A DNA stretch of 23,456 nucleotides, from the IMG/VR virus record IMGVR_UViG_2526164646_000006; one strand, 5' to 3'. The translations under genes and the position numbers were made by a program. Position 1 is the first letter of the stretch; each line of letters starts with the position of its first letter. Of the stretch, positions 529 through 20,404 are shown piece after piece. This stretch comes from a virus. Its lineage: Duplodnaviria > Heunggongvirae > Uroviricota > Caudoviricetes. The notes beneath the pieces were generated by a model, which was given only the letters and a program-made list of their open reading frames with translations, did not search any database and had not been told where the DNA came from.

Positions 529-616
529 CTGTTCTCCAATGACTAGTCTAAAAACTAGTATTAAGACTATCACTTAAATAAGTGATACTGGTTGTCTGGA
601 GATTCAGGGGGCCAGT

Positions 617-1216: not shown

Positions 1217-1217
1217 A

Positions 1218-1946
1218 TCACTCTCCTTTGATGCGAAAGCCAGCTGCGCTTGCTGATTCTTCATATGCGCGTTTAGCAGCGTTAAGGATTGCTGCCAGTG
1301 GCGTATAGCCGCCATCCATTCGGATTGTGTTGTGGATGCCAGCCATTGTGTTGCGCAATTTTCTGTGGCTAGCAGACAGTTCTGCTATGCGCTTCTCTGC
1401 GGCTTCCAGCTTCTCGCGCATATCGTCAACGTACTCGACCAGAGAACCGCCAGCAGGAATTTCGCACTCCTCGACCAGTTGGAAGTAGATATCAGCTGCG
1501 GCCCGTGTGTTGCTATGCCTAGCGTCGCCCATCTCACCTTCACGAAGAGCATCGCGTTCGGCGGTAAGATTGGCTATTTTGCTGTCTTTGCCTTCCAGCT
1601 CAACGCGCAGCTTCCCTACCGTTAGCGCAATTTCCTCGTTCTCCTGATCGCGGCGTTTTATGTATTGCTGGTTTCTTTCCAGCTCATCCAGCAGTGCCAG
1701 CACGGTAGCTGGACTGGCTGCGGCGATGAATTCAGCATTGGCCTGCTGTTCCATTTGGAAATCTTCATCGAAACCGCTTTCAGGATGCGCTCCTTCAATT
1801 CTGCAAATGGGAATATATCCAGCAGCCTCGCGATGAATTAGGGCATCATCACCATCAAATCGGCTCTCTCCATATTCGAGCGACCACTCACCACACGTTG
1901 CTTTCTCTGCCTTGGCACGCAGTGCCTGATAGTCAATCTTGCTCAC
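1218..1946 (-). CDS. coiled-coil protein, possibly Ead/Ea22-like
   Basis: GTG at 1946 preceded by AGGAGG with 7-nt spacer; 242 codons; coiled-coil rich; family assignment from recall only. Confidence 0.5.
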   Translation of the reverse strand: MSKIDYQALRAKAEKATCGEWSLEYGESRFDGDDALIHREAAGYIPICRIEGAHPESGFDEDFQMEQQANAEFIAAASPATVLALLDELERNQQYIKRRDQENEEIALTVGKLRVELEGKDSKIANLTAERDALREGEMGDARHSNTRAAADIYFQLVEECEIPAGGSLVEYVDDMREKLEAAEKRIAELSASHRKLRNTMAGIHNTIRMDGGYTPLAAILNAAKRAYEESASAAGFRIKGE

Positions 1947-2166
1947 TGTTTGCCTCCTTTGCTCGCTGATTCCACTCTGCTCTAACCTCTGAATAAAAAA
2001 TCGCGCAGTCATTTCCAGGCGCTGCATATTTGCTACCAGATTGAGCGCGACACGTACCGCATCGAACGAAATAGAATCGACCGCCAGAGCCATATTCAGG
2101 GTGATCTGCTTCGCTGGCAACGTGCGCTGCACCGCCACAGAATGGACATGGTAGTAGGTTGCTCAT
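1933..2166 (-). CDS. Lar-family restriction-alleviation-like small zinc-ribbon protein
   Basis: Translation [12 protein letters not shown]...CGTC... with paired Cys motifs; start ATG overlaps upstream stop as ATGA at 2163-2166. Confidence 0.55.
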   Translation of the reverse strand: MSNLLPCPFCGGAAHVASEADHPEYGSGGRFYFVRCGTCRAQSGSKYAAPGNDCAIFYSEVRAEWNQRAKEANSEQD

Positions 2167-2723
2167 GAATGCACTCCCTTGTGAAGCTGTTCCGCACAAT
2201 GCAGCAGGGCGTCAGTCGCCTCTTTCACCGTAACGCAGTCGCCATCGTCCAGCCCGGACACCGACGCGTGCTTAACGAACGCCGCGCAAAGGTCATCAAA
2301 CGCCTTAGCCCGGACTTCAGTCAGGAAAGCATCGGTGGCTGGGGTGTCTGATTGCATAGACTTTGCGCGATAGTCATTCCACCCTCTTGCATACATGGGA
2401 TTAACTTGCACTCCATCTTTTACGCAATATGCCTGCCCTCCACGGTTGATAACCTTGATTTCGTCCATAGCGCCAGACTTCAGCCCCGCATTCTCCGCTG
2501 CCAGTGCCGAAAACTTCTCGTGTGCCAACTTAACAGCCGAATCAGCCTGCTTAATTGACTCAATCGCTTTCTGTTGGTCTTCGGCCAGCGCCAAAATCTT
2601 GGCCTCCGCTTCAGCAAATTTACGCACCAGATATTCAGCGTTTGTTTCGTTAACATTTAAATCTCGTGGGATGCATTTACCTTTCAGAAAACCATCCATC
2701 TCAATTAGTGACATTTGTTTCAT
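2163..2723 (-). CDS. hypothetical protein (186 aa)
   Basis: Open frame starting [11 protein letters not shown]...; ATG overlaps upstream stop (ATGA at 2720-2723). Confidence 0.6.
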
Positions 2724-2902
2724 TTCTTCCCACTCCGCCACATCGCATTCAGATATTTGTTTTGATTCACTGATGGAAACGAGTTTCGCTTAAGCAATTC
2801 CTCTCTCGATGGCATTGGCTTTACGCGTTGGCGAATAATCATTTCTGCCGGAAGAATGCCGGGATTGTATGCAAGTCCTCTCATGGTAAATTCCTCAGTC
2901 AT
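2720..2902 (-). CDS. small hypothetical protein (60 aa)
   Basis: ATG at 2902 overlapping end of upstream gene; no clear RBS; likely translationally coupled. Confidence 0.35.
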
Positions 2903-3191
2903 TACTGATAGCGCCATAGCGTGATCGATAATTACGCAGACGCGGGTCGATATATTCAGGGAAGTGGGTATATGTGGCTTTGCGGAATGGTCGGATTGAT
3001 GTCTGGTAAATTCGCTCGCGTTCTTCTTTCTCTGCAAGCCATATACAGTGGCGAAATTCCTTTTCCTCTTTCGTTTCCTGCGGTAGCGACATTATCCGAT
3101 CGTAGTTTTTTCTGAATTTATCCAGCACCTCCGATACGGAATTGCCGGAACAGCGGCGCGGGTCATCCGCACCATACAGAGGCGCTGGCAT
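2895..3191 (-). CDS. hypothetical protein (98 aa)
   Basis: ATG at 3191 with AGGAG RBS 6 nt upstream. Confidence 0.55.
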
Positions 3192-3207
3192 GTTTTTCTC
3201 CTGTTGA

Positions 3208-3756
3208 TTATTTAGCTAACTTTTTCCAGATCGCTGAAACGTATTTGGCTTGGTGAATGGCATCATCAAGAGCGTTGTGGCGAGTTCCTTTGAATGGCAT
3301 ATCTCGCTTAGGGTCGAATCCTATTGCCTTCCCAAGTTCGACGATTGTTCTTACGTCGCGGTCATTCCACCACTGCCACGGAACTGGCTGCCCTGTCAGC
3401 GAATAACTGTTGCGGAGAATAACGCAGTCAAATGATGCTCCATTCCCCCAAACCTGAACGAATTTGTGGTTAGCGTTCTTTATGATGAATTCAGATAACC
3501 ATGAAAGAGCCGTTGAAAGCTCCTGAGTGTTGCTGGTTAGCGATTTCCTGGCTTCTTCACTCTGTTCCAGCCACCATAAAATCGTTGAAGCGTCAGGACG
3601 CGCTCGATATCGCATTGATGATTCAAGCGAGATATTTACCGAGAACTCTTCTCCTGTTTCTCCGGTATTCGGGTCAAAGAATACCGCCCCAATAGAAATA
3701 ACTGGCGCGTATGGCCCGTTGCCCATTGTTTCAAGGTCAACCATCAAGTGATTCAT
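3208..3756 (-). CDS. DnaQ-like DEDDh 3'-5' exonuclease
   Basis: Motifs DLETMG, FD and HNALDDA in the translation; sits beside SSB and the annealase. Confidence 0.75.
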   Translation of the reverse strand: MNHLMVDLETMGNGPYAPVISIGAVFFDPNTGETGEEFSVNISLESSMRYRARPDASTILWWLEQSEEARKSLTSNTQELSTALSWLSEFIIKNANHKFVQVWGNGASFDCVILRNSYSLTGQPVPWQWWNDRDVRTIVELGKAIGFDPKRDMPFKGTRHNALDDAIHQAKYVSAIWKKLAK

Positions 3757-3764
3757 GTAAGTCC

Positions 3765-4280
3765 TTAAATTGCGTGAATAGCGTGACGAGGGAAGGGGAG
3801 AGTTACTGGTGCAAAGGGGATATCGTCGTCAAAATCCATAGGTGGTTCGCTGTGATTTCCCTGCTGCTGAGGTTGCTGTCTTTGTTGCTGACCATTATTT
3901 CGCTGAGGTGAAGACTGTTCATTGCCTCCTTGCTTGCCACCAAGCATTTGCATGGTTCCACCAACGCCCACGATGACTTCGGTAGTGAACCGATCCTGTC
4001 CGCTTTGATCCTGCCATTTTCTTGTCCGCAATTTGCCTTCAAGATAAACCTCAGAGCCTTTTCGCAGATATTCGCTGGCAATTTCTGCCAGTTTCCCGCT
4101 CATTACCACGCGGTGCCACTCCGTCTGCTCCTTTTGCTCTCCAGTTTTCTTATCACGCCATTGTTCTGACGTAGCAACGGTAAGGTTTGCAAATGCCGTT
4201 CCTGATGGTGAATATCTGATTTCTGGATCATGCCCAAGGCGACCAATAATGATCACCTTATTTACGCCTCTGCTTGCCAT
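3765..4280 (-). CDS. ssb: single-stranded DNA-binding protein with 15-residue extension after the DDDIPF tail
   Basis: OB-fold SSB N-terminus, Gly/Gln-rich linker, [10 protein letters not shown] followed by [15 protein letters not shown] before the TAA at 3765-3767. Confidence 0.9.
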
Positions 4281-4988
4281 TTATGCCGCCTGTTTTAGTT
4301 CGTTAACTCTGATGTTCATTACCTGAACGCATTTAGCCTGCGCCTCCTCGTTGCCAGCCATTAATTGCCAGTCACGCTGATAACGCTCGATGAGTTTTTT
4401 CTTGTCAGTTTCTGTTGACGCATAATCGCTGAAGTCTTTCAGGATTTGTTCGCAGTCAACCGATGGAGATTTCTGGTTGGTATTTTCTGGTGATGGTTTG
4501 TTATCTGATGCTGGGATTGCCCATCCCGGCAGCGATGGAGGGAGCCAGTAAAATCCTGTTCCATCCTTGAGTTTTGCCCTGTGCCATCCCTGCTTTTTAT
4601 CGAGAGATGTTTGTGCAAAACCTTCCTCAAGGTTATACAGATACCGACCGATCCCCCACTGAACGGCAGCGCGCTTCATTGCACCGGAACGACCACCTTT
4701 GACGGCTTCTACCTGCGTGTTTTCAGCAGCATCCCATTTGGTTACCCATTCGGAATCAATCCTGATTGATATGCCGCATTCAACGCCTCCGTTGTTGGGA
4801 ATATCGCGGTATTCATTGCGCCATCCTGCTTTGCCGCAAACATCGTCCAGGCGTTTCATGATTGCCCGGTTCGTGACATAAGCCAGCACCATAGCCCACA
4901 CTTTGCCATCGCGTGTTTTACCGCTTTGCTGTATTCGCCATTCGATATCTTCAGGGCTGAATGGCTTATCGAATTTATTCAAATCCAT
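4281..4988 (-). CDS. Rad52/22-family single-strand annealing recombinase
   Basis: 235 aa; central region resembles Rad52-type annealases; GAGGTGA RBS; stop abuts ssb start. Confidence 0.65.
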   Translation of the reverse strand: MDLNKFDKPFSPEDIEWRIQQSGKTRDGKVWAMVLAYVTNRAIMKRLDDVCGKAGWRNEYRDIPNNGGVECGISIRIDSEWVTKWDAAENTQVEAVKGGRSGAMKRAAVQWGIGRYLYNLEEGFAQTSLDKKQGWHRAKLKDGTGFYWLPPSLPGWAIPASDNKPSPENTNQKSPSVDCEQILKDFSDYASTETDKKKLIERYQRDWQLMAGNEEAQAKCVQVMNIRVNELKQAA

Positions 4989-5087
4989 AATTCACCTCAG
5001 AATGGACATGGCCCAAGGAAATAACGCTGGTTTAATACTTCGACTCTGGACAAATTAAGGCATACCCGCATTCCTTCGCGGTCACCA

Positions 5088-5246
5088 TTATGGCGATACC
5101 AGAGAGCTTTCTGCGTGTACATGCGTCTCTGTAACTTGCTCTCCTTCACTGTGGTTGCAAGTGACATGAATATCTCCTTCGTTACCGATTAATTCTTTCA
5201 TATGACGAATGAATTCTTCGTCTGACCAGTTATCTGTAAAACTCAT
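5088..5246 (-). CDS. small hypothetical protein (52 aa)
   Basis: ATG at 5246 overlaps the Kil-like stop (ATGA). Confidence 0.3.
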   Translation of the reverse strand: MSFTDNWSDEEFIRHMKELIGNEGDIHVTCNHSEGEQVTETHVHAESSLVSP

Positions 5247-5395
5247 TTCCTGCGACACCACGGAAGGTTGATAGCTGATTTCATCGCTTTATTTGCTTCA
5301 AGCCACATTTTTGAATCACCAATAAATCTGGCTATTACTGCTTTGTTCTGTGCAGCACGAAGCATCTGATGATTTATGGCTATTTCATTGCGCAT
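5243..5395 (-). CDS. kil: Kil-like small protein (50 aa)
   Basis: Translation MRNEIAINHQMLRAAQNKAVIARFIGDSKMW... with position immediately downstream of cIII. Confidence 0.45.
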   Translation of the reverse strand: MRNEIAINHQMLRAAQNKAVIARFIGDSKMWLEANKAMKSAINLPWCRRK

Positions 5396-5511
5396 AATAA
5401 GACCTCAACTCTTTTCCATCCGTCACGTAATTTACGGGTGATTCGTTCAAGTAAAGATTCATTTAGTTGGAAGGCACCCATGCGAGCGCCTCCCGCGATT
5501 GCGTAAATCAT
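5380..5511 (-). CDS. cIII: CIII-like small protein (43 aa)
   Basis: Contains ESLLERITRKLRDGWKR, matching the lambda CIII core as recalled; AAGGAA RBS. Confidence 0.7.
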   Translation of the reverse strand: MIYAIAGGARMGAFQLNESLLERITRKLRDGWKRVEVLLCAMK

Positions 5512-5535
5512 GGGTGGTTCCTTATGTTGGTTTTA

Positions 5536-6504
5536 TTAGTAGGTTATTTTTGTTGCGAATACTTCGCCTTTTACGATGGCTGTTATGATATTTTTAGCAA
5601 CATCTTCTGATGCACCAACCTTGATAAGGTCAGCAAGTATTTTGTTATTTACTTCTTTCCGGTGAGCTTTATCCTTTGCTCTACGCTCTTCTTCTTCCTT
5701 GATTCTTTTTTCTTCTGCTATTCTGGCTTGCTCTTTTGCTTCAGCATCGCGACGGATTCGTTCAGCCTCCTCCTGTGCTTTTCTGCGTTCTGCTTCAATT
5801 GCTGCCTGCTTTTCTCTTTCAGCTCGTTCTGCTGCCTCTTTTGCTTCGCGCTGTGCTCGCTGCTCGGCTTCAATGCGTTCACGCTCTGCACGTTCCGCTG
5901 CGGCCTTAGCTTCTGCTTCTCGCCTTGCTGCTGCTTCAATTTCGGCTTTTGCCTTTGCTTCGGCTTCTGCTCTGGCTTTCTCTTCAGCTTCTCTTTTTAA
6001 GCGTTCTTCATGCTCTCGCTTTTCCTGCTCCGCTTTGAGTCTTGCCTCTTCTCTTTGGCGGTCAAATTCGCGATCCATCAAAATAGCTATTTCATGGTCA
6101 GACTCAATTTGCTTTGCGAGAGCTTCAGCTGCTGCCTTAGCTTCTTCTTCGGCTTTAATCCGCGCCTGTTCTTCCTCATAATCAGTAAGAGGCTGGCGCG
6201 CCTTGGCTTTCAGTTCATCAAGGCGATCGCGCACTGTCTTGCGGTTAGCATCAATTAGCTTTGGAATTTCCTTCAGTTCAGCAACAAGGTCTTTGCCAAG
6301 ACCATCGAGATATGTTTTCGTCTGCGCAACTTTATACGCCAGAGAAGCGATCTCCTTTCTGCCCTTTGCCGTTGTGATATCAGGCACAAAGGACATAACT
6401 TCACGTTCAACCTTTTGAAGGATTTCTTCAATCTGGTCGGCAGACTGAAATACAGTCATTGCATTTGCTTTTTCAATAACAACTAAATCTGTTACTTCAC
6501 TCAT
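5536..6504 (-). CDS. charged coiled-coil protein with E/A/K/R-rich low-complexity core (322 aa)
   Basis: ATG at 6504 with GGAGGA RBS; long AEAKAKAE/ERAERE repetitive segment. Confidence 0.6.
   Translation of the reverse strand: MSEVTDLVVIEKANAMTVFQSADQIEEILQKVEREVMSFVPDITTAKGRKEIASLAYKVAQTKTYLDGLGKDLVAELKEIPKLIDANRKTVRDRLDELKAKARQPLTDYEEEQARIKAEEEAKAAAEALAKQIESDHEIAILMDREFDRQREEARLKAEQEKREHEERLKREAEEKARAEAEAKAKAEIEAAARREAEAKAAAERAERERIEAEQRAQREAKEAAERAEREKQAAIEAERRKAQEEAERIRRDAEAKEQARIAEEKRIKEEEERRAKDKAHRKEVNNKILADLIKVGASEDVAKNIITAIVKGEVFATKITY
5607..6117 (-). repeat. imperfect short tandem repeats encoding the E/A/K/R-rich segment
   Basis: Recurrent gcttctgc/ttcggcttc-type units on the plus strand; produces low-complexity shadow ORFs in other frames. 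Confidence 0.5.
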
Positions 6505-6514
6505 ATATCCTCCG

Positions 6515-6545
6515 TCAAAAAAATTGCCCTCACACTGGAGGGCAA
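6515..6545 (-). terminator. intrinsic terminator just upstream of the coiled-coil gene
   Basis: Minus-strand 8-bp stem (6524-6531 / 6538-6545) with 6-nt loop followed by a U-run (plus-strand A-run 6515-6523). Confidence 0.5.
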
Positions 6546-6679
6546 AGAAGATTTCCAATAATCAGAACAAGTCGGCTCCTGTTTAGTTACGAGCGACATT
6601 GCTCCGTGTATTCACTCGTTGGAATGAATACACAGTGCAGTGTTTATTCTGTTGTTTATGCCAAAAATAAAGGCCACCG

Positions 6680-6880
6680 TCAGGCAGCCTTGTTGTTCAG
6701 TTTACCAAGTTCTCTGGCAATCATTGCCGTCGTTCGTATTGCCCATTTATCGACATATTTCCCATCTTCCATTACAGGAAACATTTCTTCAGGCTTAACC
6801 ATGCATTCCGATTGCAGCTTGCATCCATTGCATCGCTTGAATTGTCCACACCATTGATTTTTATCAATGGTCGTAGTCAT
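6680..6880 (-). CDS. ral: Ral restriction-alleviation protein
   Basis: 66-aa translation MTTTIDKNQWCGQFKRCNGCKLQSECMVKPEEMFPVMEDGKYVDKWAIRTTAMIARELGK matches lambda Ral as recalled. Confidence 0.9.
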   Translation of the reverse strand: MTTTIDKNQWCGQFKRCNGCKLQSECMVKPEEMFPVMEDGKYVDKWAIRTTAMIARELGKLNNKAA

Positions 6881-6950
6881 ACGGATAGTCCTGGTATTGT
6901 TCCATCACATCCTGAGGATGCTCTTCGAACTCTTCAAATTCTTCTTCCAT
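6864..6950 (-). CDS. small acidic ORF (28 aa) between N and ral
   Basis: MEEEFEEFEEHPQDVMEQYQDYPYDYDH; stop overlaps ral start. Confidence 0.4.
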   Translation of the reverse strand: MEEEFEEFEEHPQDVMEQYQDYPYDYDH

Positions 6951-6958
6951 ATATCACC

Positions 6959-7285
6959 TCAAATAAGTGGTTTGCTGCCTAATTTCATTTTCTGGCGACC
7001 AACACAAGTCACACCCATTTCACTGCGTGGCTTGCTGTACCATGTGCGCTGATTCTTGCGCTCAATACGCTGCAGGTTGCTTTCAATCTGTTCGTGGTAT
7101 TCAGCCAGCACCGTAAGGTCTATCGGATTCAGTGCGCTTTCTACTCGTGATTTCGGTTTGCGATTCAGCGAGAGAATAGGGCGGTTAACTGGTTTTGCGC
7201 TTACCCCAACCAACAGGGGATTTGCTGCTTTCCATTGAGCCTGTTTCTCTGCGCGACGTTCGCGGCGGCGTGTTTGAGAGTCCAT
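6959..7285 (-). CDS. N: N transcription antitermination protein
   Basis: 108 aa; MDSQTRRRERRAEKQAQWKAANPLL... arginine-rich motif and near identity to lambda N as recalled; GAGGA RBS. Confidence 0.95.
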   Translation of the reverse strand: MDSQTRRRERRAEKQAQWKAANPLLVGVSAKPVNRPILSLNRKPKSRVESALNPIDLTVLAEYHEQIESNLQRIERKNQRTWYSKPRSEMGVTCVGRQKMKLGSKPLI

Positions 7286-7326
7286 ATATCATCCTCAGAT
7301 AAATGGCCCCTCAGCGGGGCCGACAG

Positions 7327-7455
7327 TTATTGGCAGGTTGCGTACTTGCTGATGCAGGAGAAGATTTCCACGATTCGCGTCATTGTTGTTTCAGGACGCT
7401 TTGCTTCATCACGCATTGACTTCAACCAAGCCATAAAGTGTTCGTTATGTTTCAT
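7327..7455 (-). CDS. small ORF (42-44 aa) in the N leader
   Basis: ATG at 7455 six nt after AGGAG (second ATG at 7461); ends 40 nt before N. Confidence 0.3.
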   Translation of the reverse strand: MKHNEHFMAWLKSMRDEAKRPETTMTRIVEIFSCISKYATCQ

Positions 7456-7473
7456 GTTCATCTCCTGTCAGTT

Positions 7474-7703
7474 AGCTTTGGTGGTGTGGTGGCTGGTAGT
7501 CTAGCTCCAGCTTGTTGAGTCTCATTCGGAGGGGTATAACCGGCACCCCAGCGATTTTTCCATGCGACAACGTGCGCGTTATGGCGGCCTTATCGCCCGC
7601 GGCTCCCCATCTCGTCCACGCTATTGCTAGCGTTGGGAGCGCTTCACCGCTCAACAGTAGGTAAGCACTTGCCAGTGACTAGCTGGCTTCACCACACCCC
7701 AAA
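7474..7703 (-). promoter_or_regulatory. N-leader long-range inverted repeat, candidate RNase III-type regulatory stem
   Basis: About 30-nt imperfect inverted repeats at 7474-7510 and 7668-7703 enclosing a GC-rich segment with local hairpins. Confidence 0.45.
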
Positions 7704-7722
7704 GCCTTCTGCTTTGAATGCT

Positions 7723-7752
7723 GCCCTTCTTCAGGGCTTAATTTTTAAGAGC
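7723..7752 (-). promoter_or_regulatory. nutL (boxA + boxB)
   Basis: Minus strand reads GCTCTTAAAAATTAA then GCCCTGAAGAAGGGC. Confidence 0.85.
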
Positions 7753-7797
7753 CTCACCTTCATGGTGGTCAGTGCGTCCTGCTGATGGCTTAAAATT

Positions 7798-7865
7798 ACA
7801 AGAAAGATTGTATGTTGTAAACAAGAAATATTGTAAAAAGGGGCGTGAAAAACAAACTCCATTGT
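7798..7865. promoter_or_regulatory. OL operator cluster / pL region (434-type ACAA-N6-TTGT sites)
   Basis: ACAAGAAAGATTGT 7798-7811, ACAAGAAATATTGT 7821-7834, ACAAACTCCATTGT 7852-7865. Confidence 0.65.
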
Positions 7866-7914
7866 TTTTAAATGAAAAATAGTTTGTTTTTGGTTATCGA
7901 GATTGAGGTGGGGA

Positions 7915-9267
<1,353 letters not shown>

Positions 9268-9275
9268 GACATTCC

Positions 9276-9307
9276 CGCTCTTACACATCCCAGCCCTGAA
9301 AAAGGGC
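9276..9307 (+). promoter_or_regulatory. nutR (boxA + boxB)
   Basis: CGCTCTTACA at 9276-9285 and GCCCTGAAAAAGGGC at 9293-9307. Confidence 0.8.
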
Positions 9308-9383
9308 ATTACCAGAAACAAATCTCTATGGTTTTGCGTTTCTTTGCGAAGCCAACTCTATCTAATCATTAAGGAAATTATCT

Positions 9384-9665
9384 ATGGGTACTATTGCAAC
9401 TAAAAGCAAGAAAGCGGCTCGCATCGAGTCAGCCTTGCTGAACAAACTGGCACTGATGGGGCAGAAGACATTCGCTCGAGCAATGGGGGTTCCTGAATAT
9501 CAGGTAAGCCGATGGAAGAATGGTTTCTTCTCGCAGGTAAGCATGATGCTTGCTGTTCTGGAATACGGAATCGAAGACGATGAAATGGCTGAATTGACTA
9601 AGCGGCTTGCCGATTACCTGACAAAAGAAAAAGCCCCGAAGAACGGCGAATTCTTCGAGGCCTAA
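9384..9665 (+). CDS. cII: CII transcriptional activator
   Basis: [11 protein letters not shown]...SRWK...[10 protein letters not shown] resembles lambda CII; AAGGA RBS. Confidence 0.9.
9621..9661 (-). terminator. possible oop-type antisense terminator at the cII 3' end
   Basis: Minus-strand 11-bp stem with one mismatch (9633-9643 / 9651-9661) followed by a U-run (plus A-run 9621-9632). Confidence 0.4.
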
Positions 9666-9699
9666 TGTAGAAAGACTGGATCAATCCACGGGAGTAATT

Positions 9700-9846
9700 A
9701 TGACAAAACAACTCAGTCCTTACCAGGACAAAATTCACAAACACATACTACGTGATCGCTTCCTGTCCAGCTTCAAGCAGCATGGTCGATTCCGGGCTGA
9801 GTTGGAAAAAGTGAAGCTGATGCAGAAGGAGAAAGGTCATGAGTAA
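9700..9846 (+). CDS. small ORF (48 aa) overlapping the O start
   Basis: ATG at 9700 preceded by GGGAG; basic peptide. Confidence 0.4.
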
Positions 9847-10675
9847 TCTTGCAACCGTAACACATTTAAGGCCTTCACAACGGCCTGTGGAGCGTCGTGT
9901 GGCAGAAGTTGAAGATGGTTATACCCGTCTTGCAAATGCCCTGTATGAAGAGCTTATCGGCGCAGATTTAACGAAAAATCAGAGCAAGGTTGCCCACGCC
10001 ATATGCCGTAAAACATACGGCTACGGTAAAAAGATGGATCGCATCTCTGATAGTCAGTTAGCTCAAATTACCAGGCTGCCAAGACAGAAGGTAAACAAGG
10101 CCAAGAATGAGCTTATCGCGATGAAGGTTATCCTTCGCGAAGGCCAGCAAATCGGGCCTAACAAGAACATCGAGGAATGGCAAATAGAAGGGTGTCACTA
10201 CTCTGGTGATAATGTCACTGCATTGGTGACAAAAAGTGTCACCAAAACAGGGACACACAAAAGAAACTATTACAAAAGAAAAAGAAATAATAAAAACACT
10301 ATGTCCGAAAGTGTTCGGACGGAGTGTGAAAAATCACATGACCGTCACGAAGAAACCGACAAGGCATTCGAGGAAATATTCTGGTGTGCAGGCATGCGGA
10401 AAGCCGGGAAGAAAAACGCAGCTTCGGCATTCAGAACACAGTTCAGGGAATGGCGTAAAACTACCAGGGGTACGGCAAGCGAGTTTGCCACGATGCTGGC
10501 AGAAGACATCGCATGCAGGAATGGTAAGCAGTTCGGATTCGACAGGTTGTTACCATCGAGCTACCTGAACGGTCAACGCTGGAACGACGAGAAGCCAGAA
10601 ACTATTCAACCACAATCCAAACCATCATCCGCAATCACCGTATCGAAAACTGGCTACGTGTTTTTCGACAGGTGA
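9839..10675 (+). CDS. O: replication initiator, lambda O-like N-terminal domain with an unrelated C-terminus
   Basis: N-terminus [13 protein letters not shown]...[32 protein letters not shown] resembles lambda O; iteron-like repeats lie inside the gene. Confidence 0.85.
10190..10300. other. putative replication origin: TGTCAC-N6-GTGACA-type iterons plus AT-rich tract
   Basis: Three palindromic ~18-bp units at 10193-10256, AT-rich run 10257-10300, inverted repeat 10303-10320. Confidence 0.5.
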
Positions 10676-10782
10676 ACCATGAAATCAAAAATCAAATCGC
10701 TACTGGTTGCTGGTTATAACCACGGCTGGTTAAGTATTTCGTTTGTCGATTTCTGGTTTAAAAATCTCAATCTGAGGGAATC

Positions 10783-12309
10783 ATGACGCCAAGTGAACTT
10801 AGCGACCTGCTTTGGGCGCAGGTTGACAGGGTGGCTCCGCACCTGTTGCCAAACGGCAAGAAAGAGGGGCATGAGTGGGTTGCCGGTAACGTCAATGGTG
10901 ACAAGGGAAACAGCCTTAAGGTCAACCTTAGCGGCAAGAAAAAATGGGCTGATTTCGCTGAGGGAGACGGCGGTGACATGCTTGATTTGTGGATGGCATG
11001 TCGTGGAATTAACCTGCATCAGGCTATGCAGGAAGCGAAAGCATTTCTCGGTATCAAGGATGACGATCACCATTTCGATGCCAAACGTGAGAAAAAATTC
11101 TCCAGACCTGATCGCAAGAAAATCGCCCGCTACGTTACCAGAACAGAATCCCATCTTGAGTACCTGCAATCGCGTGGCATATCGCCAGAAGTCGTAAAGC
11201 GCTACGAGGTTGTCAGCGGCAAGGTGTGGAATGGAGAACGAGAACTTGATGCACTGGTGCTTCCGTACAAACGCGATGGTGAGTTGTTGCAGGTCAAGCG
11301 AATCAGCACTGAGCGCCCGGACGGGAAGAAAGTCATTATGGCAGAAGGTGATTGCGAACCTTGTCTGTTCGGATGGCAGGCTCTGGACGCTGGCGTGAGG
11401 GCGGTTGTACTTTGCGAAGGCGAAATTGATTGTATGAGCTATGCGCAATACGGCATCTCGGCGTTATCCGTGCCGTTTGGTGGAGGGAAAGGCGCTAAGC
11501 AACAGTGGATTGAGTTTGAGTACCACAACCTCGACAGGTTTGAGGAAATATTCATCTCGATGGACGTTGATGATGTTGGTCGTGAAGCCGCAAGGGAAAT
11601 CGCAAGCCGACTCGGTGAACATCGTTGCCGTCTTGTTACTCTGCCGTACAAAGACATCAACGAATGCCTGATGAACGGTGTTACCGAGGATGAAATCTGG
11701 CAGTACATCGGCACGGCATCCTACTTTGATCCTGAAGAACTCTACAGCGCGCGAGAGTTTTACCAGGACACTATCAACGCTTTCTACGGCAAGCAGCAGT
11801 ATCTGTTTAATCCACCGTGGGAATCTCTGGCAGATAAATTCCAGTTTCGTGAGGCCGAGTTGACGCTGGTCAATGGTGTGAACGGTCACGGAAAAACGGA
11901 GGTTGTCGGGCATATGGCACTTGAGGCAATGCGTCAGGGTGTGAAGACGTGCATCGCGTCACTTGAGCTGAAGCCTGGTATTCTCCTTAAGCGCCTTACC
12001 CGTCAGGCGACGTGCTGCAAGATGCCGCCAGTGCTGGAAATTGACTCTGCATTTAAATTTTATGACGAAAGACTTTGGGTGTTTGGCCTGACTGGAACGG
12101 CGAAAGCCGACAGGCTGATCGAAATATTCGACTACGCTCGCCGCCGATACGGCATCCAGTTATTCATCATCGACAGCCTGATGAAATGCGGCATAGGTGA
12201 CGATGACTATAACGGGCAGAAAGCATTTGTTGACTCGATTTGTGACTTCAAAAACAAACAAACTCCCACGTCATTCTCGTTACTCACTCCAGAAAAGGAG
12301 ATAGCGAAG
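10783..12309 (+). pseudogene. bifunctional primase-helicase (Toprim + SF4 RecA-fold helicase, T7 gp4-like), 5' portion; frameshifted near 12262-12268 and cut by IS911
   Basis: Toprim motifs CEGEID...DVDD; Walker A GVNGHGKT; Walker B LFIIDSL; downstream motif [11 protein letters not shown] is only readable in the -1 frame. Confidence 0.85.
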
Positions 12310-12350
12310 TGAAGTGGCACACTGAATTTGGCCACCTGAACAGAGGTGAT

Positions 12351-13549
<1,199 letters not shown>

Positions 13550-13557
13550 CCACTTCA

Positions 13558-13913
13558 AAGAAAAACCAACCGGGAAAATGGACGTAAAAGGCTCTGGAGC
13601 GATAACAGACCTGACAGACAACCTTTTTATCATCTGGCGTAACAAGGCTCGCGAGAGAGCGTTACAGAGAGTTCAGAGTGGTGAAAAGATGTCAGAGAAG
13701 GACGAACAGCTACTGGCATCTCCGGCATCTGTTTTGATGCTTGAAAAACAACGTAACGGCGAAGGTTGGGAAGGTGGTGTCCCGTTGTTCCTTGACGAGC
13801 AATCGCACCAGTTCCTGCAACTTGAATCAGGATCGCCTTATAGCTACATCGCCAATATGCCGAAATCGGAATATGACGAGGCGTGGCGACAGGAAAACGT
13901 GACGGAGTATTAA
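13558..13913 (+). pseudogene. primase-helicase 3' portion (helicase C-terminal motifs) downstream of IS911
   Basis: EKPTGKMDVKGSGAITDLTDNLFIIWRNK...LEKQRNGE aligns with the gp4/DnaB helicase H3/H4 region and joins the pre-insertion frame across the duplication. Confidence 0.8.
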
Positions 13914-13942
13914 ATGACCATCTACATCACTGAGCTTGTAAC

Positions 13943-13975
13943 AGGCCTGCTGGTAATCGCAGGCCTTTTTATTTG
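13943..13975 (+). terminator. intrinsic terminator after the helicase gene
   Basis: Perfect 8-bp stem AGGCCTGC/GCAGGCCT with 8-nt loop followed by TTTTTATTT. Confidence 0.7.
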
Positions 13976-13989
13976 GGGGAGAGTAAATC

Positions 13990-14196
13990 GTGGCTGAGCT
14001 GATTTTCTCTGCATTGAGGCTTCTCGGTGCGTCGTGGATGGTGGTGACGTTCATTGTGATTGCCAGCAGTTTTATCCGGTTGGTAGGTGAAGGTAAAGAC
14101 ATGGTGGGTGTGCTTTTCGGTAGCACTCTCATGTGGGTGATTATCGGTGTTGCGCCTGTCGCTGTTGCAAAAATGGCGTGGCGTTTTGTGAGTTGA
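13990..14196 (+). CDS. small predicted membrane protein (68 aa, two hydrophobic helices)
   Basis: GTG start with GGAG-type RBS; hydrophobic segments MVVTFIVIASSFI and LMWVIIGVAPVAVA. Confidence 0.4.
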   Translation: MAELIFSALRLLGASWMVVTFIVIASSFIRLVGEGKDMVGVLFGSTLMWVIIGVAPVAVAKMAWRFVS

Positions 14197-14213
14197 ACTG
14201 AGGATAAGTATCG

Positions 14214-14528
14214 ATGGACGAATCAAGAAAGCAGTTTGAAGAAAGTTGGTTGCGACGTGGGGGCGAATCTTCAGACCTTATCCGTTACCCTGAAAATCAC
14301 CATGAAATTGGCAGCGGTAATATTGGTGGTCAATACGTGATGGACGATGTTCAAGGCCACTGGCAAACGTGGCAGGCATCGAGAGCAGCTATTGAAATTG
14401 AGCTGCAAAAGCCAAAGAAAGGCCCACTTCCCGGTGATTATCACATTGGCTATGACTCAGGTGCAGAATCACAATACGAAAGCGATGTAGAGGCCATCCG
14501 CACTGCTGGAGTCAAAGTGAAGGAGTGA
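14214..14528 (+). CDS. hypothetical protein (104 aa)
   Basis: ATG with AGGA-type RBS; stop followed 2 nt later by the next start. Confidence 0.55.
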   Translation: MDESRKQFEESWLRRGGESSDLIRYPENHHEIGSGNIGGQYVMDDVQGHWQTWQASRAAIEIELQKPKKGPLPGDYHIGYDSGAESQYESDVEAIRTAGVKVKE

Positions 14529-14530
14529 GT

Positions 14531-14695
14531 ATGAGCGCATACGAAGAAATCATGTTAGCCCTGCGATTCTTTTTCGGTGTGGAAGAAGATGAAAACGTAA
14601 ATGAGATTATCGGGCAAGACCATGACCCGATAGGGACTATTGCAGCTGCACTTGACGATTACAGGAGCGTAAATGGTGAGGAAACTAACGTTTGA
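14531..14695 (+). CDS. small acidic protein (54 aa)
   Basis: ATG at 14531 with AAGGAG RBS; overlaps ninB start. Confidence 0.4.
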   Translation: MSAYEEIMLALRFFFGVEEDENVNEIIGQDHDPIGTIAAALDDYRSVNGEETNV

Positions 14696-15116
14696 ACTAA
14701 GAAGCCCCATCCATCAGCAGAACGCCATTCAAGCTATCCAGAAAATTCTTCCAGACCCAACCAAACCAATCGTAGTAACCATTCAGGAACGCAACCGCAG
14801 CTTAGACCAAAACAGGAAGCTATGGGCCTGCTTAGGTGACGTCTCTCGTCAGGTTGAATGGCATGGGCGTTGGCTGGATGCAGAAAGCTGGAAGTGTGTG
14901 TTTACCGCAGCATTAAAGCAGCAGGACGTTGTTCCTAACCTTGCCGGGAATGGCTTTGTGGTAATAGGCCAGTCAACCAGCAGGATGCGTGTAAGCGAAT
15001 TTGCGGAGCTATTAGAGCTTATACAGGCATTCGGTACAGAGCGTGGCGTTAAGTGGTCAGACGAAGCGCGACTGGCTCTGGAGTGGAAAGCGCGATGGGG
15101 AGACCGGGCAGCATGA
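14673..15116 (+). CDS. ninB: NinB (Orf-family recombination mediator)
   Basis: Translation ...[65 protein letters not shown]... close to lambda NinB as recalled. Confidence 0.95.
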
Positions 15117-15286
15117 TGCGATGTTATCGGTGCGGTGAATGCAAAGAAGATAACCGCTTCCGACCAAATCAACCTTACTGGAATCGATGGTGTCTCCGGT
15201 GTGAAAGAACACCAACAGGGGTGTTACCACTACCGCAGGAAAAGGAGGACGTGTGGCGAGACAGCGACGAAGTATCACCGACATAA
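15113..15286 (+). CDS. ninD: NinD-like zinc-ribbon protein (57 aa)
   Basis: [32 protein letters not shown]; ATGA overlap with ninB stop. Confidence 0.65.
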
Positions 15287-15429
15287 TCTGTGAAAACTGC
15301 AAATACCTTCCAACGAAACGCTCCAGAAATAAACGCAAGCCAATCCCAAAAGAATCTGACGTAAAAACCTTCAACTACACGGCTCACCTGTGGGATATCC
15401 GGTGGCTAAGACATCGTGCGAGGAAATGA
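15253..15429 (+). CDS. ninE: NinE-like protein (58 aa, GTG start)
   Basis: [52 protein letters not shown]; AGGAGG upstream. Confidence 0.55.
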
Positions 15430-15815
15430 CAATGGATTATTCACAGTTAAGTGATTTTGAAATTAACGTGGCGGTATTCGAAGCCATTCATAACGGATCA
15501 CCGGATTACAAAGAAGGTGAGAATGGCGCGATGGTGTTTATCTCATTTGAGGGAGACATTGTAAACGGAGACGCAGTTGAAGTAGAGGTTGAGCGCGGAT
15601 CCTTTAACCCATGCGCAAACCCAGCAGACGCATGGCCGATTATCACTGAAAACAACATCAGCATAATTTTAGACAATCCCTCAATGCCGTGCGCTACAGA
15701 CAACGCAAGGGACTTGTTTGATGATGCCGGACCGAATGTTGGTGTCGCATATGACAATCCACTCCGTGCCGCCATGATTGTCTTTCTCATGATGCAGGAC
15801 GCCAATAATGCTTAG
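15426..15815 (+). CDS. hypothetical nin-region protein (129 aa)
   Basis: ATG overlaps ninE stop (ATGA). Confidence 0.55.
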
Positions 15816-15987
15816 CCCATCCCAATCCCTTCAATACCAGAAAGAAAGCGTCGAGCGGGCTTTAACGTGCGCTAACTGCGGTCAGAAGCTGCATGTGCTG
15901 GAAGTTCACATGTGTGAGCACTGCTGCGCAGAACTGATGAGCGATCCGAATAGCTCAATGTACGAGGAAGAAGACGATGGTAATTAG
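15808..15987 (+). CDS. ninF: NinF-like Cys-rich small protein (59 aa)
   Basis: [46 protein letters not shown]. Confidence 0.6.
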   Translation: MLSPSQSLQYQKESVERALTCANCGQKLHVLEVHMCEHCCAELMSDPNSSMYEEEDDGN

Positions 15988-16369
15988 CCGATACGGACAA
16001 ATAACGTTTAAACATTTTCAAGACAATCCAACATGGGCTGCTGCGGCTGGATATGACTTTAATTATTTTGATTGTCTGTCAGTCGCATGTATTGCAACTA
16101 CCAATGTTGCTAACAACATAATCGATGAATTCTTGGATTTTCCAGACTATCAGGTCAGAGAGTTGCCTGCATTTTTTGTGAAAGTATCTGTTGCTACAGC
16201 TCTGTTATTTATTTTGTTATTCGCATATCCATTGCTTGCCGTATTTGTTTATGTGAGATGCAAACACTCACAAAAGAAATACAGCGGAGAGCATACCGAT
16301 ATTACCAGCCAAAATATGCGAGTGTGGTTGAGGAGATGCCAAGAGAAATGGGGGAGACGTCATGGCTAA
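15977..16369 (+). CDS. putative membrane protein in an AT-rich segment (130 aa)
   Basis: Hydrophobic segment LPAFFVKVSVATALLFILLFAYPLLAVFVYV; competing overlapping ORF at 16258-16491, so start and extent are uncertain. Confidence 0.35.
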   Translation: MVISRYGQITFKHFQDNPTWAAAAGYDFNYFDCLSVACIATTNVANNIIDEFLDFPDYQVRELPAFFVKVSVATALLFILLFAYPLLAVFVYVRCKHSQKKYSGEHTDITSQNMRVWLRRCQEKWGRRHG

Positions 16370-16652
16370 CCTACGCAAAGAAGCGCGCGGAAGAGAATGC
16401 CAGGTACGTATTTACGGCGTATGCAATGGAAATCCTGAAACTACAGTTCTGGCACATTACCGGATGGCTGGAATTTGCGGAACTGGAATGAAGCCTGACG
16501 ACCTGATCGGGGCATGGGCTTGTAGCGCGTGTCACGATGAAATCGACCGACGCACCCATAATCTCGACAACAAAGACGCCAGACTTTACCACCTCGAAGG
16601 CGTGATCAGGACGCAGGCGATACTGCTGAAGGAGGGAAAGATTAAGCCATGA
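16362..16652 (+). CDS. YbcO-like (DUF1364) putative nuclease
   Basis: MANLRKEARGRECQVRIYGVCNGNPETTVLAHYR...WACSACHDEIDRR; GGGGAGA RBS. Confidence 0.7.
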   Translation: MANLRKEARGRECQVRIYGVCNGNPETTVLAHYRMAGICGTGMKPDDLIGAWACSACHDEIDRRTHNLDNKDARLYHLEGVIRTQAILLKEGKIKP

Positions 16653-17011
16653 ACGAATATCAGTTTGTGCTTCCATACCCGCCGTCGGTGAACACCTACT
16701 GGCGAAGACGGGGAAGCCAATACTACATCAGCGATAAAGGCCAGAAATACCGAAAAGACGTTCAGAAAATCATCCGCCAACTCAAGTTAGACATTTTCAC
16801 CAAATCACGACTCCGCATCAAAGTAATCGCAGACGTTCCAGACTCCCGCCGCCGCGACCTCGATAACATCCTGAAAGGTTTACTCGACTCACTTATCCAC
16901 GCCGGATTTGCGGAAGACGACGAGCAATTCGATGACATTCGCGTAATTCGTGGTGTGAAAGTACCAGGCGGAAGGCTTGGAATAAAAATCACCGAACTGG
17001 AGAACGCATGA
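16649..17011 (+). CDS. rusA: RusA Holliday-junction resolvase
   Basis: LPYPPSVNTYW...DRRRRDLDNILK...IKITELE matches RusA as recalled. Confidence 0.9.
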   Translation: MNEYQFVLPYPPSVNTYWRRRGSQYYISDKGQKYRKDVQKIIRQLKLDIFTKSRLRIKVIADVPDSRRRDLDNILKGLLDSLIHAGFAEDDEQFDDIRVIRGVKVPGGRLGIKITELENA

Positions 17012-17196
17012 ACGCCACAATTCAAACGATACCAGAGCTTCTTATCCAGACACGAGGAAATCAGACCGAAGTGGCGAGGATGCTTTCCTGCGCAAGAGGA
17101 ACAGTGCTCAAGTACAACCGAGACAGCAAAGGCGAGCGTCACGTAATAGTTAACGGCGTCCTGATGGTCAAACAGGGCAAAAGGGGAAGGCCATGA
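17008..17196 (+). CDS. ninH: NinH-like small DNA-binding protein
   Basis: GNQTEVARMLSCARGTVLKY HTH-like segment. Confidence 0.6.
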   Translation: MNATIQTIPELLIQTRGNQTEVARMLSCARGTVLKYNRDSKGERHVIVNGVLMVKQGKRGRP

Positions 17197-17816
17197 GACT
17201 CGAAAGCGTAGCTAAATTTCATTCGCCAAAAAGCCCGATGATGAGCGACTCACCACGGGCCACGGCTTCTGACTCTCTTTCCGGTACTGATGTGATGGCT
17301 GCTATGGGGATGGCGCAATCACAAGCCGGATTCGGAATGGCTGCATTCTGCGGTAAGCATGAACTCAGCCAGAACGACAAACAAAAGGCTATCAACTATC
17401 TGATGCAATTTGCACACAAAGTATCGGGGAAATACCGTGGTGTGGCAAAGCTCGAAGGAAATACTAAGGCAAAGGTACTGCAAGTGCTCGCAACATTCGC
17501 TTATGCGGATTATTGCCGTAGTGCCGCGACGCCGGGCGCAAGATGCAGAGATTGCCACGGTACAGGCCGTGCGGTTGATATAGCCAAAACAGAGCAGTGG
17601 GGGAGAGTTGTTGAGAAAGAGTGCGGAAGATGCAAAGGTGTCGGCTATTCAAGAATGCCAGCAAGCGCTGCATATCGCGCTGTAACGATGCTAATCCCAA
17701 ACCTTACCCAACCCACCTGGTCACGCACTGTTAAGCCGCTGTATGACGCTCTGGTGGTGCAATGCCACAAAGAAGAGTCAATCGCAGACAACATTTTGAA
17801 TGCGGTCACACGTTAG
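17193..17816 (+). CDS. Q: Q late antiterminator, lambda type
   Basis: 207-aa translation beginning MRLESVAKFHSPKSPMMSDSPRATASDSLSGTDVMAAMGMAQSQAG... essentially as recalled for lambda Q. Confidence 0.95.
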   Translation: MRLESVAKFHSPKSPMMSDSPRATASDSLSGTDVMAAMGMAQSQAGFGMAAFCGKHELSQNDKQKAINYLMQFAHKVSGKYRGVAKLEGNTKAKVLQVLATFAYADYCRSAATPGARCRDCHGTGRAVDIAKTEQWGRVVEKECGRCKGVGYSRMPASAAYRAVTMLIPNLTQPTWSRTVKPLYDALVVQCHKEESIADNILNAVTR

Positions 17817-17858
17817 CAGCATGATTGCCACGGATGGCAACATATTAACGGCATGATA

Positions 17859-17888
17859 TTGACTTTTTGAATAAAGTTGGGTAAATTT
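17859..17888 (+). promoter_or_regulatory. pR' late promoter with overlapping qut region
   Basis: TTGACT at 17859-17864, 17-nt spacer, TAAATT at 17882-17887. Confidence 0.8.
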
Positions 17889-17920
17889 GACTCAACGATG
17901 GATAAATGCACTCGTTAAAT

Positions 17921-17957
17921 AAAGCCCTGAGTTAATAGCTCGGGGCTTTTTGCGTTT
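17921..17957 (+). terminator. intrinsic terminator about 60 nt downstream of pR' (tR'-like)
   Basis: 11-bp stem with one G-U pair (17921-17931 / 17939-17949), 7-nt loop, then TTTTTGCGTTTT. Confidence 0.7.
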
Positions 17958-18249
17958 TAAGCACGACCTTTCTGAAAGCGCATCAAACCAAATACCAGAC
18001 AGACCAAAATAATCACCTTATCCGCTGTGGCTACGGTGCGGTGTGCTTTGCATAAAAGAAAACCAGCTCAATGGCTGGCTTCGTGAAAGCGGGTGGCAAG
18101 AGGTTGCGCTAACAACCTGATGCCGTTTTGCCCGTGCATATCGGTCACGAACAAATCTGATTACTAAACACAGTAGCCTGGATTTGTTCTATCAGTAATC
18201 GACCTTATTCCTAATTAAATAGAGCAAATCCCCTTATTGGGGGTAAGAC

Positions 18250-18573
18250 ATGAAGATGCCAGAAAAACATGACCTGTTAGCCGCCATTCTCGCGGCAAAG
18301 GAACAAGGCATCGGGGCAATCCTTGCGTTTGCAATGGCGTACCTTCGCGGCAGATATAATGGCGGTGCGTTTACAAAAACAGTAATCGACGCAACGATGT
18401 GCGCCATTATCGCCTGGTTCATTCGTGACCTTCTCGACTTCGCCGGACTAAGTAGCAATCTCGCTTATATAACGAGCGTGTTCATCGGCTACATCGGTAC
18501 TGACTCGATTGGTTCGCTTATCAAACGCTTCGCTGCTAAAAAAGCCGGAGTAGAAGATGGTGGAAATCAATAA
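18250..18573 (+). CDS. S: holin S with dual-start motif
   Basis: [34 protein letters not shown]...; Met1 and Met3 starts. Confidence 0.95.
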
Positions 18574-19033
18574 TCAACGTAAGGCGTTCCTCGATATGCT
18601 GGCGTGGTCGGAGGGAACTGATAACGGACGTCAGAAAACCAGAAATCATGGTTATGACGTCATTGTTGGCGGAGAGCTATTCACTGATTACTCCGATCAC
18701 CCTCGCAAACTTGTCACGCTAAACCCCAAACTCAAATCAACAGCAGCCGGACGTTACCAGCTTCTTTCCCGTTGGTGGGATGCCTATCGTAAGCAGCTTG
18801 GCCTGAAAGACTTCTCTCCGAAAAGCCAGGACGCTGTGGCACTGCAACAGATTAAGGAACGTGGCGCTTTACCGATGATTGATCGCGGTGATATCCGTCA
18901 GGCAATCGACCGTTGCAGCAATATCTGGGCTTCACTGCCGGGCGCTGGTTATGGTCAGTTCGAGCATAAGGCTGACAACCTGATTGCAAAATTCAAAGAA
19001 GCTGGCGGAACGGTCAGAGAGATTGAGGTATGA
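18557..19033 (+). CDS. R: endolysin R (lytic transglycosylase)
   Basis: [49 protein letters not shown]... Confidence 0.95.
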
Positions 19034-19467
19034 GCAGAGTCACCGAGATTATCTCCGCTCTGGTTATCTGCATCATCGTCTGCCTGTCATGGGCTGTTAA
19101 TCATTACCGTGATAATGCAATCGCCTACAAAGAGCAGCGCGATAAAGCCACATCCATCATCGCTGATATGCAGAAGCGTCAACGTGATGTAGCTGAACTC
19201 GATGCCAGATACACAAAGGAGCTTGCTGATGCTAACGCGACTATCGAAAGTCTCCGTACTGATGTCTCTGCTGGTCGTAAGCGCTTGCAAATCGCCGCCA
19301 CCTGTGCAAAGTCAACGACCGGAGCCAGCGGCATGGGCGATGGAGAAAGCCCAAGACTTACAGCAGATGCTGAACTCAATTATTACCGTCTCCGAAGTGG
19401 AATCGACAGGATAACCGCGCAGGTTAACTACCTGCAGGAATACATCAGGACGCAATGCCTTCGATGA
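19030..19467 (+). CDS. Rz: Rz i-spanin
   Basis: N-terminal membrane helix then coiled-coil; contains embedded Rz1. Confidence 0.9.
19229..19414 (+). CDS. Rz1: Rz1 o-spanin lipoprotein, embedded in Rz in the +1 frame
   Basis: AAGGAG RBS; lipobox VSAC; proline-rich mature region. Confidence 0.85.
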
Positions 19468-19607
19468 TAGCGATAATTTTACTCATCATCCTTCACATCT
19501 GGCTCTGTAGACAGGGTGGTGATCACTTCTGGAGTGAATCCAGATTAAACATCTCATTGCTGATGCTTGATATTGAGCATCTGGCGCGCGGTAAGGGGCT
19601 GCGTTGA
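19464..19607 (+). CDS. small hydrophobic ORF (47 aa) overlapping the Rz stop
   Basis: [14 protein letters not shown]... begins at ATGA overlap with Rz. Confidence 0.25.
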
Positions 19608-19848
19608 GATAAGAGCCAGTTCATTACAAAGCCTATCTACTGGTGGGCTTGATAATGAAACCGGAATTTATTCTGGGCAACCAGTTACGGCAGTACCGCG
19701 AAACAACCCAAGCCAGTAAGTGGGGAAATAACACTGGCAGCCACTGAAAGATGAACCTCCAGCCTTATGGCAAAAAAGATTCTTTGTGGTGGCGGACTGA
19801 TGGAAAGACATCCGCTGAATCGATGATAAACAAGTGGAAGAGGTTGCG

Positions 19849-20022
19849 ATGGTTTCCGTGAACAAAGATCCGAAGGAAGGCGTTGAATACATCACTGGTG
19901 CTGATGGTGTGAAAAGACCAATGGCTTATTACAAAGCGGCTGAAGAGAGGGCAAGAATAGAAAATCCCCCTAAATGCGGATCATTTTTCGACATGCTGAA
20001 TCTTCAACAATGGAAGTTGTGA
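19849..20022 (+). CDS. small hypothetical protein (57 aa)
   Basis: ATG at 19849 with AAGAGG-like RBS. Confidence 0.3.
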   Translation: MVSVNKDPKEGVEYITGADGVKRPMAYYKAAEERARIENPPKCGSFFDMLNLQQWKL

Positions 20023-20161
20023 ACAATTAACAGGTCGCTCAGGTGGCCTTTTTTATTGCCATCACAAAAGCCATTCCCTACAGAGTGGCTTTGATAATGG
20101 CTTATACCCTACACGGGATAACTTAACTGATATCCCTTTTAACGGATAAACGGAGCCAACA

Positions 20162-20404
20162 ATGGCAGAGATTATTCCCATGACTGAAGAACAGAAATTC
20201 CAGTTAGAGATTTACAAACTGGTCATGAACCAGAACGCAGCCGCGGAGGAAGCATTTCAATTCATTGGCACTGACGAACTGAAGCTTGAGCTATTCAAAA
20301 TTCACTTCCAGTCAGGCGGCGCGAATTCAGATATCACGATCCGCACATTCGAAGCGGTGCGTAAATCGAAGGAAGCGTTAGACCTGTTCACTACCGGAGC
20401 ATAA
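20162..20404 (+). CDS. hypothetical protein (80 aa)
   Basis: ATG with GGAG RBS 7 nt upstream. Confidence 0.5.
   Translation: MAEIIPMTEEQKFQLEIYKLVMNQNAAAEEAFQFIGTDELKLELFKIHFQSGGANSDITIRTFEAVRKSKEALDLFTTGA

Follow-up and report, generated by a model that had tools for sequence, protein, structure and literature searches.

Bifunctional primase-helicases of the T7 gp4/Twinkle family, among them ES18 gp61, mEp043 gp55 and Sf101 gp45, join a Toprim domain to an SF4 helicase of RecA fold, and the same combination is found in the product of the prophage gene described here once its reading frame is repaired. The locus also resembles two described kinds of gene disruption. Like the IS911 inactivations of Shigella prophages, it carries a near-identical copy of the element, flanked by a 3-bp direct duplication and absent from a sister prophage; like 454-type draft miscalls, it lacks a single base of a mononucleotide run, privately in one draft. 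The window, by which we mean the whole stretch of DNA analysed, is the entire contig AGRC01000012.1 (23,456 bp) of the draft assembly GCA_000281795.1 of Shigella flexneri 6603-63. It holds a prophage of the P22-like/lambdoid type with the early and late-left regions present, encoding a Rad52-type recombinase, N, a cI-like repressor, a Cro-like protein, CII, an O-like replication protein and the primase-helicase, together with a nin region, Q, lysis genes, terminase and portal; the start of the contig falls inside an IS2 copy, the IS2 fragment extending from window position 1 to about 560. Unlike its relatives in the T7 gp4/Twinkle family, the window gene is interrupted by IS911 and its deposited sequence carries a frameshift, and a helicase product is impossible. 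We propose, from comparison of sequences, that the shortened run responsible for the frameshift, an A3 at 12256–12258, is probably a homopolymer undercall in the draft and not a mutation, a reading to which we assign a probability of roughly 85%.

As deposited, the 5' part of the primase-helicase gene is an ORF on the plus strand (10783–12312 in the ORF list) encoding 509 aa (EJL17986.1, annotated as 'replication protein P'). The last 18 codons of this product are out of frame, its stop is the TGA at 12310–12312, which is made up of bases 1–3 of IS911, and the exact 509-aa product is on record for AGRC01000012.1 of S. flexneri 6603-63 alone. Helicase motif H3 (12267–12299, plus strand) is translated in the -1 frame relative to this upstream ORF. 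Once IS911 and one AAG copy are removed, the H3 frame runs on across the insertion into the 3' part of the gene (13561–13913, plus strand), which comprises motif H4 onward, ends with TAA at 13911–13913 and is 100% identical to Sf101, mEp043, B7A and CP026792.1. The gene reconstructed in this way measures 1880 bp against 1881 bp in every relative, mEp043 gp55 and Sf101 gp45 included, and it encodes the 626-aa protein except for one missing A. An earlier note on this DNA had described a -1 frame change upstream of IS911 and a conserved helicase motif in the -1 frame that opens after the TGA at 12243–12245 and continues across the insertion; the deposited sequence and its translation bear out both statements.

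A Pfam match to Toprim_2 (PF13155) covers residues 209–296 (E 3e-12, above the curated cut-off), and the repaired 626-aa protein has AAA_25 and DnaB_C helicase matches in addition to Toprim. Residues 192–539 of the repaired protein match the T7 gp4 structures 5IKN (E 2.7e-23), 6N7I and 1Q57, and the protein also aligns with Twinkle. In the alignment, HVILVTHSR of the repaired protein stands opposite VLVVICHLK of T7, and KGSGAITDLTDNLFIIWRN opposite RGSGALRQLSDTIIALERN, the aligned T7 segments being motifs H3 and H4; the H3 motif is aligned with VLVVICHLKNPDKG of T7 gp4 (PDB 5IKN). Judged by its sequence, the gene is a member of the T7 gp4/Twinkle-like primase-helicase family of lambdoid/P22-like phages, of the ES18 gp61 type. 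Only the repaired or sister sequence has Walker A, H3 and H4 in a single frame, as an uninterrupted SF4 helicase domain, and the exact repaired, IS-less protein of 626 aa occurs on at least 1000 contigs. In the window, the frame of the helicase domain shifts at codon 492, four codons short of H3, and IS911 splits the domain after codon 509, between H3 and H4.

Where does the frame change? The TGA at 12243–12245 (plus strand, read directly from the sequence) shuts the -1 frame upstream, and the indel must therefore sit between 12246 and 12266. Alignments place it at 12256–12258 (plus strand), where the window has A3 and every relative A4: one A is the only gap in the alignments with mEp043, Sf101, six reference loci, E. 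coli prophages and CP026792.1, and few substitutions besides this gap separate the window from mEp043 and Sf101. The relatives read GACTTCAAAAACAAAACAAACTCC, with the codons GAC TTC AAA AAC AAA ACA AAC TCC CAC GTC (DFKNKTNSHV), and the window reads GACTTCAAAAAC-AAACAAACTCC. The frame change is located 54 bp upstream of IS911, in the A-rich stretch TTCAAAAACAAAACAAAC. The earlier note had placed the loss around the CCC run at 12265–12267; we rejected this run as the indel site, since it is unchanged in all relatives. The alignment with intact homologues that the note had suggested as a check located a single gap, in the A-run. Of the findings that it said would count against it, homologues one base longer occur for the A-run, not for the C-run, and homologues sharing the frame structure of the window were not found.

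The A3 allele has no identical counterpart among the 290 complete E. coli genomes where the gene occurs, in which the best identity is 99.8% and the difference is the single gap, nor among 39 phage records, in which the best identity of the segment is likewise 99.8%. A 29-mer spanning the A3 allele had 0 matches in IMG/VR and 0 in the GTDB species representatives (185,579 genomes). A gapped pattern derived from the window and lengthened by one base gave 118 matches in IMG/VR, and the extra base was A in 118 of 118. The A3 allele is not chance variation.

The element between H3 and H4 is a 1248-bp IS911 (IS3 family; 12310–13557, plus strand) that the sister prophage lacks. Its ends, which form terminal inverted repeats, are TGAAGTGG...CCACTTCA, with AAG on either side: the left target-site duplication occupies 12307–12309, where the sister genome has a single AAG, and the right one, read from the sequence, 13558–13560 (both plus strand). 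Identity is 99.0% to annotated E. coli IS911 and 99.8–99.9% to S. flexneri copies. In other S. flexneri genomes IS911 abuts remnants of a paralogous primase-helicase gene, a further likeness to IS911 inactivation as described for Shigella prophages. What sets the present insertion apart from others in such prophages is its site, after gene position 1527, of which no second example turned up in other assemblies, and the broken orfA start (A6) of the deposited copy. IS911 genuinely interrupts the gene, and no other break in it is well supported. Because IS911 alone already splits the helicase domain, the A-run lesion is without functional consequence, whether it is real or not.

Within the element, orfB is intact (279 aa), and the start of orfA is out of frame through an A6 run in codons 2–3 (12385–12390, plus strand). 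Of the other IS911 copies compared, one shares the A6 state, L017 from a different S. flexneri draft, and the corresponding locus of 6603-63 reads A7; the remaining copies have A7, among them those of complete genomes and the one on contig AGRC01000020.1 of the 6603-63 assembly. The missing A breaks orfA and thereby creates the annotated 124-aa ORF at 12309–12683, which begins at a GTG spanning the insertion junction and whose named entries all come from S. flexneri draft genomes (K-227, 4343-70). If neither run lacked its A, the truncated primase ORF would extend 30 codons into IS911 and reach 539 aa; with A4 restored but the A6 of IS911 kept, it would fuse in frame to OrfA to give 633 aa. 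An exact look-up of the hypothetical 539-aa product of A4 plus IS911 returned no match. At window position 13208, orfB has T where the other copies compared, including that on AGRC01000020.1, have G (Gly to Cys, in ETRCKPGG), and the exact 279-aa OrfB is found on two contigs, both of the 6603-63 assembly, and on no others. Given that this OrfB variant is confined to the one assembly, an IS911 sub-lineage may have transposed recently within the strain.

The comparison that bears most directly on the missing A is with S. flexneri 61-4982, serotype 4b (chromosome CP026792.1; PMC9455713), in which the same prophage has one AAG and no IS911 at the insertion point, the alignment being continuous across the site. 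This chromosome came to light through a look-up of the small protein encoded at 13990–14193; a look-up of the terminase with a GTG start returned the 6603-63 assembly alone. Window positions 1–12309 are 99.968% identical to CP026792.1, and positions 13558–20196 are 100.000% identical over 6639 bp. The differences over the 18,948 bp aligned come to one substitution and three single-A gaps, at 389–390 (A2/A3), 10279–10283 (A5/A6) and 12256–12258 (A3/A4); each of these bases is absent from the window, which stands alone in this respect at all three positions. The A2 run at 389–390 (plus strand) lies in the IS2 fragment and is A3 in the sister genome and in E. coli IS2 copies. No exact match to the A2 state was found among 19,480 IS2 matches in E. 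coli genomes, the best reaching 99.6–99.7%, and the four listed single-piece IS2 hits have 282 record bases each against 281 query bases. The only substitution relative to 61-4982 is at 9055, where the window has C instead of A, so that codon 2 of the Cro-like HTH gene is CAA (Q) and not AAA (K).

In E. coli mutation accumulation, small indels arise at about a tenth of the substitution rate, or perhaps at a third of it without mismatch repair. Given one substitution in 18.9 kb, 0.1–0.3 real indels are expected, and the Poisson tail for at least three is 1.5e-4 to 3.6e-3; three to four real run deletions are unlikely even with a five-fold higher substitution expectation. Drafts from the early period to which this assembly belongs typically contain 1–2 homopolymer undercalls per 10 kb. 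Taken together, the private run deletions, at about 1–2 per 10 kb, are the signature of flow-based undercalls. The likeness to 454-type miscalls extends to the number of private run deletions (A2/A3, A5/A6, A6/A7, A4/A5 in the paralogue and T6/T7) in the near absence of substitutions, and to a T-run at which two assemblies of one strain disagree. In comparison with the usual 454 trouble spots, the runs of 3–4 here are shorter. Literature searches on strain 6603-63, its WGS prefix and run SRR060746 returned nothing on the platform, which is presumably flow-based; the attribution of the missing bases to sequencing chemistry is inferred.

The principal rival to an undercall is a genuine second lesion, in which replication slippage would have removed one A in the 6603-63 lineage before or after the arrival of IS911. 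The deposited sequence does, after all, lack the base, runs of A are naturally prone to slippage, and with no selection after the IS911 insertion neutral frameshifts can accumulate; in a gene that is already a pseudogene, a real neutral frameshift is not implausible. Moreover, pyrosequencing less typically gives a consensus error at a run of 4 (or of 3 at 389–390) than at runs of 6 or more, and the draft is not uniformly noisy, as 4.2 kb of AGRC01000020.1, from an 8.2-kb stretch, showed no indel in comparison with complete genomes. However, for a genuine lesion three to four private losses of a single A would all have to be real, in about 20 kb that differ from the sister genome by one substitution, and every variant is a singleton of one assembly despite heavy sampling of S. 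flexneri. On balance we regard a genuine second lesion as unlikely.

The O-like replication gene (9839–10675) speaks to both readings. A 23-bp deletion at 10236/10237 takes out one iteron-like repeat (TGTCACCAAAACGGTGACAGCGC) in the origin region, and by itself frameshifts O to give a truncated protein of 150 aa. Contigs with this truncated O, which combines the 23-bp deletion with A6, number 42 and come from several sources; the sister genome and E. coli HVH 30 are among them. In the window, a private single-A deletion leaves A5 at 10279–10283 (plus strand), a very A-rich part of the gene in which all relatives have A6. The change from A6 to A5 restores the frame and yields a 278-aa O (EJL17985.1) with 12 residues out of frame, a product on record only in 6603-63 data, and the A5 state is reproduced by the Logan assembly of SRR060746. 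A -1 change that opens a 278-aa frame and also appears in Logan could be a real compensatory slip, and could mean that A-runs truly slip in this strain. We read the restoration of the frame as a coincidence, since the truncated form is widespread and the restored form limited to this strain.

The Logan assembly, made independently of the deposited draft, carries the private 278-aa O allele and hence represents the same strain. Over 11,321 bp (window 608–11928) it differs from the deposited contig once, with T5 against T6 at 5706; T6 is shared by the deposited contig, the sister genome and the intact 322-aa gene, and the T5 of Logan truncates the product to 284 aa. This disagreement points to homopolymer-length ambiguity in the reads, and a difference in homopolymer length between the Logan and deposited assemblies weighs against a genuine lesion. 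An abundance of apparent frameshifts between Logan and NCBI was rejected as differences between gene callers, the DNA differing at one base. A further candidate, an A7/A6 frameshift at 19772 at first assigned to the Gp49 gene, was also rejected, as the site is unannotated and the complete E. coli genome SRY149 has A6 as well. The Logan contig ends at 11928, at the start of a two-copy repeat, and position 12256 lies beyond it; a look-up of the partial product expected from 11899–12309 returned nothing, as did look-ups of three guessed 133-aa partials.

A second copy of gene positions 1111–1881, with 97.5% identity, is found on AGRC01000020.1 of the same draft, downstream of another IS911 and of an apparent intein remnant. 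This paralogue, truncated by IS911, lacks one A in a neighbouring run (TTC-AAAACAAAAC, A5 to A4), a -1 state absent from other S. flexneri assemblies, and its 151-aa product (EJL16643.1) is recorded for this assembly alone. With the A added back, it encodes a 260-aa protein identical to HCS2577919.1 of a different S. flexneri assembly; a version extended at the N-terminus to 274 aa occurs on 194 contigs. Both copies of the A-rich stretch in the 6603-63 draft carry private -1 calls, in different runs, and a genuine second lesion would thus have to be joined by an independent, real -1 change in the neighbouring run of a paralogue in the same genome. AGRC01000020.1 also has T6 in place of T7 in an IS.

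The paralogue has features of its own. Its 5' boundary (L014, AGRC01000020.1 3370–4177; L015, 1284–4001) falls within ...GYVATHN/TEVVGH, inside Walker A (GHGK/T), the slash marking the boundary, and related intact genes encode 905–968 aa with a weak Pfam hit to LAGLIDADG_3. These observations suggest that in this family of phage proteins an intein may occupy the P-loop of the helicase. In other S. flexneri genomes (L011, L013 and L016–L018), IS911 directly abuts paralogue position 1687; in 6603-63 a further 890 bp or so of the paralogous gene come after the same left flank of IS911. This arrangement fits an IS-adjacent deletion in the other S. flexneri lineages.

Singleton -1 variants also occur in other assemblies within the same 24-nt stretch: A5 to A4 in P0085, A4 to A3 in P0090, and C3 to C2 in the Logan member P0089, the last together with an apparent upstream loss from G4 to G3. 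Their occurrence at different runs indicates that this low-complexity stretch is error-prone or slippage-prone in general, and they could mark a mutational hotspot, as a genuine lesion at 12256–12258 would have it. It is conceivable that the private single-A deletions in the primase-helicase gene, O and the paralogue are all real. They would then reflect a slippage-prone past of 6603-63, for example through mismatch-repair deficiency, or else TTCAAAAACAAAACAAAC would be a recurrent frameshift hotspot that inactivates helicases in Shigella and E. coli prophages. We consider this broader proposal distinctly improbable.

A programmed -1 ribosomal frameshift, or transcriptional slippage, by which the helicase domain would be built from two frames, can hardly be credited. 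The A-rich sequence AAAAACAAAC does look slippery and the downstream frame is -1, but homologues encode the 626 aa in a single frame (39 phage records, 290 E. coli genomes and 118 IMG/VR matches), the two-frame structure occurs in no homologue, no X XXY YYZ heptamer lies in the zero frame, and IS911 cuts the downstream frame 14 codons past the motif in any case. That the window might instead have the ancestral length, with an inserted A in the relatives, including a PacBio-era complete genome, is suggested by the homopolymer errors that a long-read consensus may contain, but it can be set aside, given that A4 is found in Sanger- and Illumina-era phages (mEp043, Sf101), in the 290 E. coli genomes and in the 118 IMG/VR matches, and gives an uninterrupted T7-gp4-like helicase alignment.

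We therefore return to a homopolymer undercall as the preferred account of the A3 run. One A of the A4 run would have been dropped in the reads or in the consensus, an error of the pyrosequencing type, and the true sequence would have the primase frame in H3 register, running straight into IS911. The earlier note had left the choice between a second inactivating lesion and a homopolymer error of the assembly; the sister comparison, the A-run of IS911 and the paralogue favour the error, and the independent lesion is the less supported of the two.

What does the locus mean for the prophage and its host? There is no new biology in it: an ordinary IS911 event with a 3-bp duplication is combined with a known class of miscall, and its importance is limited to annotation hygiene. 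EJL17986.1 (509 aa), EJL17985.1 (the 278-aa O) and the 124-aa 'transposase' are probably not real proteins, and counting two lesions in the gene would overstate the decay of this pseudogene. For checking frameshifts in the 6603-63 draft, the near-identical complete genome of S. flexneri 61-4982 is a useful reference. Even a real deletion would be neutral, IS911 having destroyed the gene already.
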